From contig CAWHSM010000004.1 in NCBI GenBank assembly GCA_963832045.1, forward strand, positions 244,896 to 308,895: a DNA stretch of 64,000 bases, written 5' to 3'. Shown one piece after another: positions 3,842 to 62,020 of the stretch; the stretch's first letter is position 1; every line of letters starts with the position of its first letter. The notes beneath the pieces are model-generated. The model made no database searches, was not told the DNA's origin, and saw only the letters and a program-made list of their open reading frames with translations. The stretch comes from an uncultured Alphaproteobacteria bacterium (GTDB taxonomy: Bacteria > Pseudomonadota > Alphaproteobacteria > Rhizobiales > Xanthobacteraceae). Made by a program: the position numbers and the translations under genes.

Positions 3842-4083
3842 CCGGCAAACTCATAATTGCACAGCGTCCTTGCGTCGCAATTTTTAACGCGTCGCGCAAG
3901 GCCAAGAGGCGGGCAATCGGGCCGGAACTATCCGCAAAGCGCGGGCGCATGTTGATAACCCTTCCGTCGGGCGGGCGGCCGCGCCTTTAGCGGAATCCGT
4001 CGAACAGAAGAAGCCGCTTTACACGAAAGCTCGGTCCGGGCTTAGTTCACGGTGACTGACACGCAAAGAACGGGGAGCCCGTC

Positions 4084-4956
4084 ATGTTCAGTGAAAAGCT
4101 GCTCGCAGGCCGGCGAATTCTAGTCACGGGAGGCGGCACCGGGCTCGGCAAATCGATGGCTGGGCGCTTTCTCGAGCTGGGCGCGGAGGTCCACATTTGC
4201 GGACGCCGCAAGAGCGTCTGCGACGAGACCGCGACCGAATTGATGGACCTTCATGGCGGCCGCGTCACCAGCCACGGCGTCGATATCCGCAACGCTCTTG
4301 CGGTCGACGAGATGATCGAAGCGATCTTCAAGGACAGCCCGCTCACCGACCTCGTCAACAACGCAGCCGGGAATTTCATCTCGCGCACCGAAGATCTTTC
4401 GTCGCGCGGCTTCGATGCGGTGGCCAACATCGTCATGCACGGCACCTTCTATGTCACGCATGCCGTCGGCCGCCGCTGGATCGCCAACAAGCTCCGCGGC
4501 AACGTGGTTTCGATTACCGTCACCTGGGTCCGTAACGGCAGTCCGTATGTGGTGCCGTCGGCGATGAGCAAGTCGGCGGTCCATGCCATGACGATGTCGC
4601 TGGCGGCCGAATGGGGCCGCTACGGCATCCGGCTGAATACGATCGCGCCAGGCGAGATTCCGACCGAGGGCATGAGCAAAAGGATCAAGCCGGGCGACGA
4701 GGCCGGCGCGCGTACCCGGGCCGCAAACCCCATGGGCCGGGTCGGGACGATGGAGGAGCTGCAAAACCTGGCAGTGTTCCTGATTTCCGGCGGCTGCGAC
4801 TGGATCAACGGCGAGACCATCGCAATGGACGGCGGCCAGGCGCTCGCCATGGGCGGCAACTTCTATCAGCTGCGCGACTGGACCGACGCCGATTGGCAAA
4901 AAGCCCGCGAACAGATCAAGGCGCAAAATGAAAAAGACCGTGGGGCCAGGGGATAA
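4084..4956 (+). CDS. SDR-family oxidoreductase (2,4-dienoyl-CoA-reductase-like)
   Basis: N-terminal Rossmann motif VTGGGTGLGKSM; NNAAGNF; 290 aa. Confidence 0.85.
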   Translation: MFSEKLLAGRRILVTGGGTGLGKSMAGRFLELGAEVHICGRRKSVCDETATELMDLHGGRVTSHGVDIRNALAVDEMIEAIFKDSPLTDLVNNAAGNFISRTEDLSSRGFDAVANIVMHGTFYVTHAVGRRWIANKLRGNVVSITVTWVRNGSPYVVPSAMSKSAVHAMTMSLAAEWGRYGIRLNTIAPGEIPTEGMSKRIKPGDEAGARTRAANPMGRVGTMEELQNLAVFLISGGCDWINGETIAMDGGQALAMGGNFYQLRDWTDADWQKAREQIKAQNEKDRGARG

Positions 4957-35330: not shown

Positions 35331-35817
35331 CTAGTGTCCCGATTCCGAAGTTCGTACCCTCTAGCGGCCCCATTTTTACGAACTTCGGAATCGAAAGGAC
35401 ACTAGTGTAGCGACTTCTGACGTTCCTTTCAGTGCTGCCGCGAGCTCTCGGAAGGAACGTCAGAGTCAAAGCTACACTAGGATCATATAGTTGCTAGTGT
35501 CCCTTTGGTTCTGACATTCGTAAAAGTGCGCGCTGCGATGGGATACGAATGTCAGAACCGGGACACTAGCCAACTTTTTGATCTAGTGTGGCTTTGGTTC
35601 AGAAGTCCGCATGGCGAACTCGCGGCAATAGGGATGCGGACTTCTGAACCGCCACACTAGTGCCCAGTTCGTGCTCCGTTGCCGCACCCACTTTCCACGA
35701 ACTTCGGAAAGTCAGGGGCACTAGCAAACCTATTGATTCTAGTGCCGCTTTTCTATTTGAAGTTCCTGAATCGAATTCGCCGCTTGTGGTGCAGGAACTT
35801 CAAATAGGCGGCACTAG
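35331..35817. repeat. Array 1 of CTAGTG...CACTAG bulged-hairpin units (six units, unclassified family)
   Basis: Units at 35331-35405, 35402-35480, 35494-35569, 35583-35660, 35657-35724 (one arm truncated) and 35739-35817. Each has a 9-10 bp outer stem, a TTT/AAA bulge, a 16-17 bp inner stem and a 19-23 nt loop. Confidence 0.92.
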
Positions 35818-42271: not shown

Positions 42272-42410
42272 CCCCTCTCCCCTTGCGGGAGAGGGTGCCT
42301 GAGCGAAGCGAAGGCGGGTGAGGGGTTGGTCCTTGATGCGCTGCAACCCCTCACCCGGCTCAATCTCGCCATGCTCGATTTCGCCACCCTCTCCCACAAG
42401 GGGAGAGGGA
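42272..42410. repeat. REP-like triple-hairpin element, family A
   Basis: CCCTCTCCCC-TTGC-GGGAGAGGG, GGGTGAGGGG..CCCCTCACCC and CCCTCTCCC-ACAA-GGGGAGAGGG. Confidence 0.9.
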
Positions 42411-52419: not shown

Positions 52420-53394
52420 GTGTCCGACGCCGCCCTCTCCCACAAGGCCAATTCGAACACTGCGCCAAGCCGCACCCACGCGACCGGCTGGTTTCGCCGC
52501 GGACTCGAAAGCGACATATTCTATTCGTTTCGCCGCTCCAGGCTCACCATGGTGGCCGGTGCGGTGACGCTGCTGTTCTTTCTGCTTGCGATTGCAGCAC
52601 CCCTTCTTGCGGTCCAGAATCCATTCGATCCGGCGCAGCTCCAGCTCCTGAATTCGCGGATCGAGCCGCTTTGGTTGGCCGACGGCCAAAGCCCATTCCT
52701 GCTCGGCACCGATGAGCAGGGCCGCGACGTCTTTTCCGCCATCCTCTACGGCCTGCGCATTTCGCTTGTTGTCGGCATCCTCGGCGTTTTGTTTTCGGGA
52801 ACGCTCGGCATCGTGCTGGGGCTGATCGCCGGCTATTTCGGCGGCGCAATCGACGGCCTGATCATGCGCATCGCCGACGTGCAGCTCACCTTTCCCGCCA
52901 TCCTGATCGCGCTGCTCGTCAACGGGGTCGCCAAATCGCTGTTCGGCAACCGGCTGGATGCGTTGAGCACGCTCGCGGTACTGGTCTTCGCGATCGGCCT
53001 GAGCTTCTGGGTGCAATATGCGCGCACCGTGCGCAGCTCCGTGATGGTGGAAAAGAACAAGGATTACGTCGCGGCGGCGCAACTGATCGGCCTGCCCGCG
53101 CCGGTGATCATGCTCCGGCACGTCTTGCCCAATGCGATGGGTCCGATCCTGGTGATCGCGACGATCAATCTTGCGCTTGCGATCATTACCGAGGCGACCT
53201 TGTCGTTTCTGGGCGCCGGCATGCCCGACACCATGCCGTCGCTCGGCACCTTGATCCGGATTGGCAACAACTATCTGTTCGCCGGCGAGTGGTGGATCGT
53301 GGCCTTTCCCGGCATCGCTCTTGCAGCGCTGATCCTGTCCATCAACCTGCTCGGCGACTGGCTGCGTGACGCCCTCAACCCGAAACTTCGATAG
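52420..53394 (+). CDS. ABC transporter permease (DppC-like)
   Basis: GTG at 52420 proposed, because the track ORF start at 52228 overlaps the previous permease. ..FLLGTDEQGRDVFSAILYG.. is typical of DppC/OppC. Confidence 0.85.
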   Translation: MSDAALSHKANSNTAPSRTHATGWFRRGLESDIFYSFRRSRLTMVAGAVTLLFFLLAIAAPLLAVQNPFDPAQLQLLNSRIEPLWLADGQSPFLLGTDEQGRDVFSAILYGLRISLVVGILGVLFSGTLGIVLGLIAGYFGGAIDGLIMRIADVQLTFPAILIALLVNGVAKSLFGNRLDALSTLAVLVFAIGLSFWVQYARTVRSSVMVEKNKDYVAAAQLIGLPAPVIMLRHVLPNAMGPILVIATINLALAIITEATLSFLGAGMPDTMPSLGTLIRIGNNYLFAGEWWIVAFPGIALAALILSINLLGDWLRDALNPKLR

Positions 53395-58015: not shown

Positions 58016-59001
58016 CCGCTACGCCGTTGATCGAGATTCAGAATTTGCGCGTCGTCTTTCACGGCGACAACGGCAGAACCACGCATGCGGTCGACGCCGT
58101 CGATCTTGCCGTCGCCCAGGGCGCCACACTCGGGCTGGTCGGCGAATCCGGCTGCGGCAAGAGCGTCACCTCGCTCGCCGTCATGGGGCTGTTGCCAAAA
58201 CAGTCGACCGAGGTGACGGGATCGATTCGCTTCGATGGCTTCGATCTCCTCAACGTGTCCGACAAGATCCGGCGCGACCTGCGCGGCAACCGGCTCGCGA
58301 TGATCTTCCAGGAGCCGATGACCTCGCTCAATCCGAGCTTCACCATCGGCGACCAGATCATCGAATCCATTCTGCGCCATCGTGGCGGAAGCAAGAGCGC
58401 CGCCCGCAAGCGTGCGATCGATTTGCTGCGGCGGGTGCATATTCCCTCCCCCGAGCGCCGCATCGATGAATACCCGCACAAGCTTTCCGGCGGCATGCGT
58501 CAGCGCGTGATGATCGCGATGGCGCTGGCCTGCGATCCCCGTCTCCTGATCGCCGACGAGCCCACCACCGCGCTCGACGTGACCTTGCAGGCGCAGATCC
58601 TCGACCTGATGCGCGAACTGAAGGCGGAAAGCGGCGCCGCGATCATCCTGATCACCCACGATCTCGGCGTCGTGGCAGAAGTCTGCGACGAGGTCGCGGT
58701 GATGTATGCCGGCGAGGTCGTGGAGCGCGCGGGCGTCGATGAATTGTTCGCAGCGCCGCAACATCCCTACACCGTCGGGCTTCTGGGTTCGATTCCGCGG
58801 CTGGATCGCCGTAGCTCGCATCTTGCGACCATCGAGGGCATGGTTCCCAACATGACCTTACCCCCGAATGGTTGCCGTTTCGCGGCGCGCTGTCCTTTTG
58901 CCGAGGCGGCTTGCACCGCGACAGCTCCGCCACTTGTGGAGGTCAGTCCCAGCCATTGGTCGCGCTGCATCCGCGCGCCGCTGCAGAGGCTGGTGTCGTG
59001 A
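58012..59001 (+). CDS. ABC transporter ATP-binding protein (DppD-like), second system
   Basis: Walker A GESGCGKS, signature [12 protein letters not shown] overlap with DUF1028. Confidence 0.9.
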
Positions 59002-60122
59002 TGGCCGCGCTGCTCGAGGCCAAAAATCTGGTCAAGCACTTCGTCGCCTCGCGCTCGGCGTTTGGCCGGCCGACGGCTTTCGTCAAGGCGGTCGACGACG
59101 TCAGCTTCAGTGTTGATGCCGGCGAGACGCTGGCGCTGGTCGGAGAATCCGGATGCGGCAAATCCACCGTCAGCCGGCTGGTGTTGCGCCTGATCGAGCC
59201 GGATCACGGTGAAATCCGTTTCGAAGGCCGCGACCTGCTGGCGATGGACGCGAACGAATTGCGCGCCTTCCGCCGCGACGCGCAGATCATTTTCCAGGAC
59301 CCTTATGCCTCGCTCAATCCGCGAATGACCGTCGGCCAGATGCTTGCCGAGCCGCTTGTCTTGCACAATCTGGTGCCGCAGGCCCGTCGCCGCGAACGGG
59401 TCGAAGAATTGCTGCGGCTCGTTGGTCTCGAACCGCGCTCGAGTCGCCGCTATGCTCACGAATTCTCCGGCGGACAGCGCCAGCGCATCGCGATTGCGCG
59501 CGCGCTTGCGGTGGAACCAAAGCTGATCATCTGCGACGAACCGGTCTCGGCGCTGGATGTCTCGATCCGCTCGCAAATCCTCAATCTGCTCGGCGATCTG
59601 CAAAGGCGGCTCGGGCTCGCCTACATTTTCGTCTCGCACGATCTTGCGGTGGTCAAACACATCGCCGATCGCGTAGCGGTGATGAATCTCGGCAACATCG
59701 TCGAGACCGCACCCGCCGAGACGCTGTTTACCTCGCCGCGCCACCCCTATAGCCGGGCGCTGCTGTCGGCAATCCCGGTGCCGAAACCGCAGGCCAAACG
59801 CAGCCGCATGGTGCTCGAGGGCGAGATGCCGAGCCCGATTGATCCGCCCCCCGGTTGCCGGTTTCATACCCGTTGCCCCTATACGATCGACCGCTGCCGC
59901 AGCGAGGTGCCGCAACTCAAGCCGAGCACGGCCGGACACCTGACCGCTTGCCACCGCGCCGGTGAACTGCCGCCGGCGGGCGCGATCATCCCCAGCGATG
60001 GCGCCTTCTCGCCTGAACTGGAACGATTGGTCGCAGCGTTCGGCCGTCCTAGTGTCCCGATTCCGAAGTTCGTAGCATCTTGCGGAGCCACGTTTCGAAC
60101 TTCGGAATCGAAAGGACACTAG
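59001..60122 (+). CDS. ABC transporter ATP-binding protein (DppF-like), second system, with a repeat-encoded C-terminal tail
   Basis: ATG at 59001 (overlaps the preceding TGA). Walker [10 protein letters not shown], signature FSGGQRQR. The last 24 codons and the TAG stop lie inside hairpin unit 60049-60122. Confidence 0.88.
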
Positions 60123-60302
60123 CAAAACTACTAATCTAGTGTGGCTTTGGTTCAGAAGTCCGCATGACCAGCCCGCGGCACAAACGATGCGGACTTCTGA
60201 ACCGCCACACTAGAATCATATGGTTGCTAGTGTCCCTTTGGTTCTGACATTCGTAAAAGTGCCCGCCGCGATGGGATACGAATGTCAGAACCGGGACACT
60301 AG
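60049..60302. repeat. Array 2 of CTAGTG...CACTAG bulged-hairpin units (three units)
   Basis: Units at 60049-60122, 60136-60213 and 60227-60302. Their stems are identical to array-1 units 1, 4 and 3 respectively, and the loops differ. Confidence 0.92.
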
Positions 60303-60356: not shown

Positions 60357-61889
60357 ATGTCAATGGAGATGAGTCCGATGAAGATGATGCGTTTGGCGGC
60401 AATCGCTGCGGTCATGTTGCTCTCGTTTGAGGCAGCCGCTCACGCCCAGACCACGCTGCGCATCGGCCTTGCGGAAGATCCGGATGCGCTCGATCCCTCG
60501 ACCGCACGCACCTATGTCGGTCGTATCGTGTTTGCGGCGTTTTGCGACAAGCTGTTTGACATCGACGAGAAGCTCAACATCGTGCCGCAACTCGCGCTGT
60601 CGCATGAGACCTCGGCCGACGGCAAGGAAATGACGATCAGGCTGCGGCCCGGCGTCAAATTTCAGGACGGTGAGGCCTTCGACGCGGAAGCAGCCAAATT
60701 CTCGCTCGATCGCCATCTCAACTTGCCGACCTCGTTCCGCAAACCAGAACTCGCCGCACTCGATCACGTCGACGTCGTCGATCCCCTCACCATCAAGCTG
60801 GTGCTGAAAACCCCCTACTCGCCGCTGATTGCGCAGCTCACCGACCGCGCCGGCATGATGGTCTCGCCGAAGGCGGCGAAGGAGGCCGGCGACAAGTTCG
60901 GATTGCACCCGGTTTGCGCCGGGCCCTACAAGTTCGTCGAGCGCGTGCAGCAGGACCGTATCGTCTTCGAGAAATTTGCCGATTACTGGAACAAGGACAA
61001 CGTCTTTATCGATCGGGTAGTGTTCCTGCCGATCGTCGATGCCACGGTGCGGCTCGCCAATCTCAAATCGGGCGGGCTCGACCTGATCGAGCGCCTGCTT
61101 GCCACCGACATCAAGGACGTGCGCGCCGATTCAAGGCTCAAGCTGTCGACCGCGCTCGAGCTCGGCTATATGGGCCTCACCCTCAACATCGGCAACGACA
61201 AGAACAAGGGCGCGCTCAGTCAATCGGAGAAGGTCCGTCAGGCGCTCGACCTCTCGATCGACCGCGACGCCATCAATCAGGTCGTGTTCAACGGCGAGTT
61301 CACGCCCGGCAATCAATGGGTCAGTCCCGAACATCCCTATTACCAAAAGGCGTTCCCGATTCCGAAGCGCGACGTCGCCAAGGCCAAGGCGCTGTTGAAG
61401 GAAGCCGGCGCATCCTTGCCCGTCAGTGTCGATCTGATGGTGCCGAAGGGCGCCGAGAACGAAGCGGTCGCGCAGGTCATACAGTCGATGGCGGCGGAAG
61501 CGGGTTTTGATCTCAAAATACGCCTGATCGAATTCGCCACCTCCTTCAAGCAGGCCCAGGCCGGTGAATTCCAGGCCTTCCTGATCGGCTGGAGCGGCCG
61601 GATCGATCCTGATGGAAATTCCTACGTCTTTCTGCACACTAAGGCGCCGCAGAATGACGGCGTCTATTCCAACCCCGAAGCCGACAAGGGTTTTGAGGAT
61701 GCGCGTTTGATCACCGATCCCGCACAGCGCAAGGCGATCTACGAGAAGGTCACCGGCGCCGTGCTGAAGGACGAGCCGATCATCTACCTCTATCATCGCA
61801 AACTCTTGATTGCACATACCATCAGGCTCGAAGGCTACCGACCGATGCCGGACGGCCTGGTGCGCGTCGTCGGGTTGAAGCTGAAGTGA
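60357..61889 (+). CDS. ABC transporter substrate-binding protein, family 5 (DppA-like), second system
   Basis: Signal peptide ..MKMMRLAAIAAVMLLSFEAAAHA, then QTTLRIGLAEDPDALDP. Several in-frame ATGs occur at 60357-60384, so the start is uncertain. Confidence 0.88.
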   Translation: MSMEMSPMKMMRLAAIAAVMLLSFEAAAHAQTTLRIGLAEDPDALDPSTARTYVGRIVFAAFCDKLFDIDEKLNIVPQLALSHETSADGKEMTIRLRPGVKFQDGEAFDAEAAKFSLDRHLNLPTSFRKPELAALDHVDVVDPLTIKLVLKTPYSPLIAQLTDRAGMMVSPKAAKEAGDKFGLHPVCAGPYKFVERVQQDRIVFEKFADYWNKDNVFIDRVVFLPIVDATVRLANLKSGGLDLIERLLATDIKDVRADSRLKLSTALELGYMGLTLNIGNDKNKGALSQSEKVRQALDLSIDRDAINQVVFNGEFTPGNQWVSPEHPYYQKAFPIPKRDVAKAKALLKEAGASLPVSVDLMVPKGAENEAVAQVIQSMAAEAGFDLKIRLIEFATSFKQAQAGEFQAFLIGWSGRIDPDGNSYVFLHTKAPQNDGVYSNPEADKGFEDARLITDPAQRKAIYEKVTGAVLKDEPIIYLYHRKLLIAHTIRLEGYRPMPDGLVRVVGLKLK

Positions 61890-61917: not shown

Positions 61918-62020
61918 GCTCCCTCCCCCCTTGTGGGGGAGGGTTGGGGTGGGGGGTCCACACGGGGACTGTCAATATGGCCACCCCCCTCCCTGTCCCT
62001 CCCCCACAAGGGGGGAGGGA
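61918..62020. repeat. REP-like element, family A variant
   Basis: CTCCCTCCCCCC-TTGT-GGGGGAGGG, GGGGTGGGGGG..CCCCCCTCCC and CCCTCCCCC-ACAA-GGGGGGAGGG. Confidence 0.85.

Follow-up and report, generated by a model that had tools for sequence, protein, structure and literature searches.

The stretch of DNA analysed here, a window of 64,000 nucleotides from contig CAWHSM010000004.1 of an uncultured Xanthobacteraceae bacterium (assembly GCA_963832045.1), carries nine copies of a long hairpin-forming repeat, six in an array at 35331-35817 (array 1) and three in an array at 60049-60302 (array 2), which are listed with their linkers and neighbouring genes in Table 1. The window is Bradyrhizobium-like, its binding-protein homologues at 90-100% identity being named Bradyrhizobium sp. 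A preliminary description of this DNA, made from its letters alone, had given positions for the three array-2 units that proved exact and had paired them with units 1, 4 and 3 of array 1, as alignment bears out (35331/60049, 35583/60136 and 35494/60227). Its statement that both arrays lie between co-directional genes also holds, array 1 standing between two minus-strand genes and array 2 between the gene for an ATP-binding cassette (ABC) transporter ATPase and that for a substrate-binding protein, with the amendment that the ATPase frame does not end before array 2; it runs through the first unit and takes that unit's terminal TAG as its stop codon.

Table 1 Features of the two arrays and their surroundings (window positions unless a locus is named)
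Feature	Position	Strand	Remarks
U1, left half of dimer A (array 1)	35331..35405	-	parted from its partner U4 by the inserted dimer B
Dimer B: U2(-), linker GATCATATAGTTG, U3(+) (array 1)	35402..35569		in the CTAG between U1 and the dimer A linker
Dimer A linker CCAACTTTTTGAT and U4(+), right half of dimer A (array 1)	35570..35660	+	
Dimer C: U5(-), linker CAAACCTATTGATT, U6(+) (array 1)	35657..35817		inserted in the outer CTAG of U4
ABC ATPase frame (ABC_tran + oligo_HPY)	58872..60122	+	3' end hit by the array-2 insertion; the start is a mechanical TTG and may be too far upstream
U1' hairpin unit, left half of dimer A' (array 2)	60049..60122	-	bulge AAA on the 3' arm
Dimer A' linker CAAAACTACTAAT	60123..60135		degenerate family linker, 3 mismatches to ATCAANNNNTTG
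U4' hairpin unit, right half of dimer A' (array 2)	60136..60213	+	bulge TTT on the 5' arm
Dimer-B-type linker AATCATATGGTTG	60214..60226		resembles the IHF (integration host factor) core site ATCAWNNNNTTR
U3' hairpin unit (array 2)	60227..60302	+	right half of a dimer B without its left hairpin (U2 type)
SBP_bac_5 substrate-binding protein gene	60357..61889	+	downstream of array 2
Second repeat family	23197-23343, 42273-42410, 61920-62020, also 52433-52456		
FRT-like subtypes	L022:1986-2063, L096:421-499, window 35739-35817		

All three array-2 units begin with CTAGTG and end with CACTAG, and as single strands they fold with energies of -39.6, -50.6 and -44.7 kcal/mol (60049, 60136 and 60227 units, respectively), corresponding to z-scores of -7.1 to -9.7 against dinucleotide shuffles, with both strands folding equally well. 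A tandem repeat finder reported nothing at either array because the units are too unlike each other. Pairwise alignment between the arrays gave 8 differences for 35331 vs 60049, one of them a 1-nt indel at the top of the stem, 8 for 35583 vs 60136 and 2 for 35494 vs 60227. All 18 differences (a count that replaces the earlier figure of about 20) belong to the loop, alignment columns 27-50, and the ~160 nt of stem have none, a placement with a chance of ~0.3^18 if positions were equivalent. The confinement of change to the loops therefore stands, as does the conservation of the linker preceding the unit-3 type, which is identical between the arrays at 11 of 13 positions (repeat family D7).

Scanning the contigs of species-representative genomes with CTAGTGNNNCTTTGGTTCNGA placed these units in a family of at least 113 loci and ~290 units in roughly 70 genomes, nearly all of them, among the matches listed, belonging to Xanthobacteraceae, Bradyrhizobium, Afipia or Hyphomicrobiales. 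The sampled loci held 165 further exact units, and more than 140 arrays were counted in the at least 113 loci. Around the sampled loci about one additional independent array occurs per 26 kb, a density which suggests, as a rough estimate, a copy number of hundreds per genome. The units have no coding capacity and occur as many small dispersed copies, as MITEs (miniature transposable elements with inverted repeats) do, and the neighbours of the arrays are ordinary housekeeping genes. No match to array 2 was found by BLAST among 72,556 plasmids, and the window gave no Rfam 15 family match at gathering thresholds; at E<=1 the only matches were those of generic long hairpins to miRNA precursor models, far below threshold. 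Seven GC-rich, viral-classed IMG/VR contigs (L123-L126 and L128-L130) carry typical dimers, and one further viral match was a chance one; these contigs may represent either prophages or pieces of host DNA from the same bacterial lineage. Since no description of the unit sequences, or of such elements in Bradyrhizobium, was found in the literature searched, the repeat family is apparently undescribed.

The basic module of the family is a palindrome of 74-79 nt that runs from CTAGTG to CACTAG; one of its arms bears a T-rich bulge, and GCNGC forms the centre of its loop. The arms inside each hairpin pair near-perfectly over 26-28 bp, and in nearly every unit the bulge is a 2-3-nt insertion ~10 bp from the end. 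Units were oriented by aligning the left arm with the reverse complement of the right arm; orientation by minimum-free-energy structures was dropped as too noisy. In the resulting alignment of 170 units, CTAGTG is followed by 4 covarying base pairs and then by the TT(T) bulge. Next come a stem of ~17 bp, also covarying, whose core is TTCnGAAGTTCG, and a loop of ~21 nt in which the GCNGC centre looks invariant and its flanks are semi-conserved; CACTAG closes the unit.

The usual element is a dimer of such modules, ~165 nt long, in which two unlike hairpins stand with their bulged arms inward on either side of a linker of 12-13 nt. A profile search with nhmmer recovered 120 dimers and 14 singles, besides a few arrays that hold 3, 4 or 6 units. 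Polarity is regular, with the left unit on the minus and the right unit on the plus strand in 54 of 58 clean pairs, so that the bulged arms face the linker, and hairpin subtypes keep fixed partners (U1 with U4, U2 with U3 and U5 with U6 in the window). The outer ends of a dimer read, on both strands, CTAGTG, 4 nt and then a GGTTCnGAAGTyCG-like sequence. The linker is AT-rich and itself oriented; 38 of 58 linkers lie within one mismatch of ATCAANNNNTTG and 30 of 58 match ATCAWNNNNTTR, for which ~0.001 matches per site would be expected. The IHF consensus is WATCAANNNNTTR, and the pattern ATCAWNNNNTTR is its core; judged by its letters, the dimer linker resembles an IHF site.

Other hairpin-based sites were considered and set aside. 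Integron attC sites lie between gene cassettes next to intI and carry the R''/R' boxes RYYYAAC...GTTRRRY; these boxes are absent from the present units, which end in CTAGTG and CACTAG and stand in tandem, without cassettes, among housekeeping genes. Sites of the dif/Xer kind and FRT-like recombination sites were likewise rejected. Subtypes with GAAGTTCCTAT...ATAGGAACTTC arms share up to 11 identical nt with the FLP recognition arms of FRT (Table 1), which we take to be a coincidence.

That these dimers move is indicated by the comparison of filled and empty sites. Dimer A' recurs in locus L018 at ~95% identity, loops and linker included, with unrelated flanks, and array 2 as a whole is absent from four orthologous ATPase-binding-protein junctions (L114-L117), where the two genes lie ~30-40 nt apart. 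The empty junction reads GGCCGC-ACCGAG/ACCGAT-GGAAGCG and the filled one GGCCGT-C[CTAG...CTAG]T-GGAAGCG. When array 2 is collapsed to a single CTAG, both length and frame of the ATPase are restored, with an end of AFGR-PS-GSEPGFRG and a stop, to be set beside AFGR-TE-GSEPRFRG and a stop in the relatives. With array 2 in place, the first 72 nt of the 60049 unit are read as a new C-terminal tail, and the tail that is native in the relatives (...AAFGR-TE-GSEPRFRG) has been replaced.

In array 1 the target itself can be read. The orthologous site in L118 and L119 holds dimer A only, whereas the window carries three dimers: dimer C has entered the CTAG that joins the flank to U4, and dimer B the one that joins the dimer A linker to U1. 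Each of these sites has one CTAG when empty and one CTAG on each side when filled, with no other base gained or lost, indicating a target-site duplication in two nested insertions. In array 1, dimer A (U1...U4) is thus interrupted by dimer B (U2-U3), and its outer CTAG is occupied by dimer C (U5-U6). Array 2 starts with dimer A', after which come a linker and a right hairpin that belong to a dimer B; the left hairpin of this dimer B was presumably lost between repeated ...ACACTAG feet. The shuffled unit order, which had been treated as a puzzle in the preliminary description, ceases to be one because mixed order results from whole dimers inserted into one another. A further site is provided by a DUF2385 gene that ends ...AAC-TAG in both L018 and L096, with different dimers at that CTAG, and of which the orthologue in L005 ends in TGA and lacks a dimer. 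Loci L039 and L002 form another real filled/empty pair, with flanks too diverged to read the target.

The tetranucleotide at which insertion occurs is rare in this DNA. In the window CTAG was observed 29 times against an expectation of 222, 18 of the 29 lying inside the two arrays, and in loci L001-L113 it occurs 288 times outside the elements against ~3000 expected, an about tenfold depletion. Because CTAG is depleted elsewhere, element borders make up a large share of the available targets. GATC and TCGA are 2.6-fold over-represented in the window and in the same loci. Among 127 one-mismatch variants of element borders, 53 read CCAG or CTGG, and this decay shows the bias expected from very-short-patch-type repair. 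The terminal TAG of the array serves as the stop codon of a long reading frame with high G+C at third codon positions at 24 of 192 array ends, compared with about 5 for each other frame. A TAG stop codon preceded by C is therefore a favoured natural target, at which the gene is left intact. At a few arrays the outer base is other than C or G with TAGTG/CACTA intact; such bases were seen at 15 of 279 outer ends and at 7 of 270 inner junctions, an excess that is not significant. In two dimers, L084:7007-7169 (GTAGTG...CACTAA) and L043:3063-3226 (TTAGTG...CACTAA), both outermost bases are of this kind, and these ends fit insertion at GTAA or TTAA (NTAN) with duplication of TA.

The contrast between stems and loops extends to the whole family. 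Within a subtype the arms are near-invariant across genomes, including arms that were not used to select copies, and loop positions show a pairwise diversity of 0.2-0.6, except for the conserved GCNGC centre and a TGAT flank. The earlier view of constrained stems and loops that are free around a kept centre is therefore upheld, and the per-position comparison it had called for shows that variation over further copies is not evenly spread. Its suggestion of fast or diversifying change in the loops is not borne out: identical loops recur at several loci of one metagenome-assembled genome and in related ones, a loop almost the same as that of the 60049 unit stands at the non-orthologous L018 site, and between the window and its orthologous dimer in L118 the loops (~42 nt) differ by 5 substitutions, or ~12%, against 8-26% for flanking non-coding DNA. 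Loop differences appear to mark subfamilies, with the loops drifting at about the neutral rate.

In the same comparison the stems (~108 nt) differ by 4 substitutions and 2 indels; the four substitutions break pairing in the L118 dimer, which has also had 6 nt of one terminus deleted. Judging from this orthologous copy, residents seem to be allowed to decay, with no protection of their stems in situ, and the invariant arms of dispersed copies would reflect that only lineages with intact arms keep producing copies. Within the otherwise intact array 1, U5 (35657-35724) is a decaying copy: ~12 nt are missing from one of its arms (CTAGTGCCC/AGTTCGTG), and its folding energy is only -25.6 kcal/mol. 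Across subtypes, by comparison, 98.4% of 2586 stem cells are paired, 19 of 26 pairs carry double-sided (compensatory) changes, such changes number 497 against 152 in shuffles, and the covariation score is 0.506 against 0.158 for shuffles and at most 0.127 for slid partners. G-U pairs make up less than 1%, a frequency close to that of A-C mismatches. The property that is kept is strict Watson-Crick symmetry, without strand preference.

Taken together, these observations make it likely that the hairpins are a non-autonomous mobile DNA element of the Bradyrhizobium/Afipia (Xanthobacteraceae) lineage that inserts at CTAG, of the same kind as MITEs, bacterial interspersed mosaic elements (BIMEs) and REPINs, the hairpin-forming doublets of repetitive extragenic palindromes (REPs). 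As the filled and empty sites show, a dimer enters a CTAG and leaves CTAG at both of its ends, and each insertion adds CTAG sites, so that later copies tend to land in the borders of earlier ones and arrays of mixed order build up. The arms may be the cis-acting sequences for mobilisation, kept by the lineages that move, while the central ~20 bp would be mostly free to drift and to become subfamily marks. The duplicated sequence is probably the TA within CTAG. CTAG with duplication of TA is the target of the IS630 family (IS630 itself and, in Agrobacterium, IS870) and, within IS5, of the IS427 group, and by analogy of target these insertion sequence (IS) groups are the most likely class to supply the mobilising enzyme, a DDE transposase of the IS630 or IS5/IS427 type that would act in trans. 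IHF may bend the linker and thereby join the ends, and the 3-nt insertion that forms the bulge could keep the inner arms from being cleaved, with the result that the dimer would move as a whole.

Several points weigh against this reading. A duplication of TA leaves the same sequence as a duplication of CTAG, and as a Y1 mechanism in which target and 3' end of the element each contribute a CTAG. The relatives' empty array-2 sites have a variable two-codon stretch and no CTAG, and the ancestral CTAG there is a reconstruction. The putative role of IHF depends on likeness to a literature consensus. No recurring protein was found beside the arrays when 951 neighbouring frames were clustered, the clusters being TctC, ABC, SDR and similar proteins, and ~1 Mb of loci contained no isolated arms or IS-like pairs of arms and no autonomous element or cognate transposase. 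No frame resembling a REP-associated tyrosine transposase (RAYT) was found by tblastn in a sample that covers ~1-2% of the arrays in these genomes; the query, an E. coli RayT sequence, gave chance matches only, to amine-oxidase-like and heptosyltransferase-like frames. The sole transposase seen is an IS5-type fragment in L064 with a terminal sequence unrelated to the arms. Finally, a plain terminal-inverted-repeat model does not account for the conserved GCNGC centre and the near-universal bulge.

The L064 fragment (3847-4210) is a 5'-truncated, frameshifted IS4/IS5-type transposase (PF01609) flanked on either side by one hairpin of a dimer. The IS ends in ...TGAGGACAGGC directly at the hairpin CTAG, and the same IS end abuts an unrelated CTAG at L051:5375-5480; with this and a terminus unlike the hairpin arms, it was rejected as the autonomous parent of the family. 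A CTAG-targeting IS5-family element in these genomes appears instead to use the repeats as landing sites.

Alternatively, the hairpins could be REP-, BIME- or REPIN-type elements kept with a single-copy domesticated Y1 (RAYT-like) transposase. The hairpins would then form in single-stranded DNA and be cleaved at each foot, CTAG would play the role of the GTAG tag, and the flanking CTAGs would be target plus element end, with no true duplication. The architecture agrees, in that unlike palindromes of fixed subtypes are inverted around a conserved IHF-like linker as in BIMEs and REPINs, and so do hairpins kept intact by compensatory evolution, an asymmetric extrahelical bulge typical of hairpins recognised as single strands, the seemingly precise loss of one hairpin from array 2, and an estimated copy number of hundreds per genome with inheritance largely within one lineage. 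REP families of Bradyrhizobium with GCGG/CCGC-type loops have also been reported by Di Nocera et al. (PMC3733652). REPs are, however, imperfect palindromes 20-40 nt long that are tagged at one end by GTAG (or CGTC) (PMC3733652), and the present units are 74-79 nt long with CTAG at both; no RAYT-like gene was seen in ~1 Mb around arrays, and divergent promoter regions hold arrays as often as chance predicts, the gene contexts being 32 tandem, 16 divergent and 8 convergent (n=56), close to chance. We regard this explanation as unlikely. Slightly less probable still, in our estimate, is that the family is a new kind of element, a CTAG-homing double cruciform moved by an enzyme that recognises folded hairpins (bulge, GCNGC centre and CTAG feet) and is not a classical transposase binding terminal inverted repeats; C-TAG stop codons would offer such an element safe places to land, and it would seed its own targets. 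This idea is entertained because no parent IS or RAYT was seen, because the loop centre and bulge are conserved, and because all four feet are the same hexamer. With it goes the conceivable idea of a host-level role for the repeats, for example as structural sites in the nucleoid that are bound by IHF.

The preliminary description had proposed that the hairpins segment mRNA stability or translation in polycistronic transcripts, as selected RNA structures. The hairpins fold very stably (-40 to -51 kcal/mol), the genes on the two sides of each window array are co-directional, and perfect ~28-bp duplexes such as these would be good substrates for RNase III, as the Correia elements of Neisseria are. 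Nevertheless, a selected function as RNA is very improbable: G-U pairs are nearly absent and no commoner than A-C, neither strand is favoured, every dimer holds hairpins of both orientations, and 16 of 56 arrays lie between divergent genes. In addition, four close relatives have this operon but lack the array, the C-terminus of the ATPase was changed by the insertion, the orthologous L118 copy is decaying in its stems, and no promoter-like or terminator-like consensus was found in array 2. An element acting at the DNA level is favoured because G-U pairs are rare, strand preference is lacking and all intergenic contexts are used, and the pattern of stems, loops and order is explained without requiring an RNA function, although effects of the hairpins on operon mRNA are possible as an incidental by-product. 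The further possibility that both arrays stem from segmental duplication or gene conversion between two loci, with the stem-versus-loop pattern as an alignment artefact, draws on the 99-100-nt stretches that they share at 86-95% identity (repeat families D7 and D8). We give it almost no credence, as the flanks are unrelated, the unit composition differs, the alignments are gapless except for one indel, more than 140 other sites in ~70 genomes hold units of the same kind, and neither the dimer A' copy in L018 nor the nested insertions agree with it.

For a mobile CTAG-inserting element, the closest known relatives in design are BIME-1/RIP, REPINs and Correia-type MITEs. Like BIME-1/RIP of E. 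coli, it has unlike palindromes inverted around a short conserved linker with an IHF-type consensus and is extragenic, dispersed and sometimes clustered into mosaics; its palindromes are, however, 74-79 bp against ~35 bp, it has CTAG on both sides in place of one GTAG tag, it inserts with a flanking CTAG repeat and without a bias to gene 3' ends, and no RAYT was found. With the REPINs moved by RAYTs (Bertels and Rainey, PMC3116915) it shares the inverted doublet and long hairpin, conserved arms with a variable middle, structure-preserving compensatory changes, and large within-genome populations that are largely vertical within the lineage. It differs from them in a second level of pairing (a dimer of unlike hairpins plus linker), in a CTAG target with no GTAG, and in that no flanked single-copy Y1 transposase was seen in the sampled loci. 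Correia elements (CREE/nemis) of Neisseria and other TA-duplicating MITEs (RUP; IS630/Tc1-type) are likewise small, without a reading frame, and have long terminal inverted repeats, a central IHF site, a TA-containing target repeat, hundreds of copies and frequent co-transcription with neighbours, but here each end is a full hairpin with a ~20-bp loop, the full CTAG is the target, the sequences are unrelated, and no parent IS of the present family was seen in the sampled loci. The family is set apart from all three by the double-hairpin dimer, CTAG at four feet and self-seeded targets.

Among the alphaproteobacteria, intergenic palindromic repeats of ~100 bp are found as Bru-RS1 and Bru-RS2 of Brucella and RIME of Sinorhizobium, here compared by description; we know of no report of a dimer architecture for them. 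The Bru-RS repeats are insertion sites for an IS5-family element that duplicates TA at YTAR, IS711 using Bru-RS1 as its landing site in Brucella (PMC3163539), and an IS5-type element abuts CTAG likewise in L064 and L051. In the same bacterial lineage as the present family, Bradyrhizobium japonicum USDA 110 has the intergenic palindromic repeats Br-REP1 and Br-REP2 (consensus CCGGAATCTCGAGATTCCGG and CGAGATTCCGGGTTCGGCTCTT-CGAGCCGCCCCGGAATGA, respectively; PMC5082802), which are unrelated in sequence to the CTAGTG...CACTAG units and were rejected as the same family.

Two further features of the window are separate from the hairpins. Between 51800 and 64000 of the window, two paralogous gene sets for peptide/nickel-type ABC transporters stand side by side, with ATPase pairs at ~53.4-55.3 kb and 58.0-60.1 kb, permeases at ~51.8-52.9 kb and 62.1-63.9 kb, and 61-79% identity over the repeated stretches. 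The window also holds a second, unrelated repeat family (Table 1) of small GC-rich hairpins, CCCTCTCCC-nnnn-GGGAGAGGG, which stand as inverted pairs on either side of GGGTGAGGGGTT / AACCCCTCACCC; in the array-2 operon, one copy separates the binding-protein gene from the permease genes.

The present family seemingly occurs in hundreds of copies per genome, unannotated, in a dominant group of soil bacteria, and it affects annotation by giving rise to spurious small reading frames, changed ends of genes and breaks in assemblies. It offers an account of how arrays of unlike hairpins arise, in that an element which needs a rare tetranucleotide, and brings four copies along, offers its own relatives the best target. 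It also links both the depletion of CTAG and the TAG stop codons to where insertions occur. In one documented case, insertion rewrote the C-terminus of an ABC transporter ATPase. If the mobilising enzyme is structure-specific, the family would provide a new model for hairpin-guided transposition.

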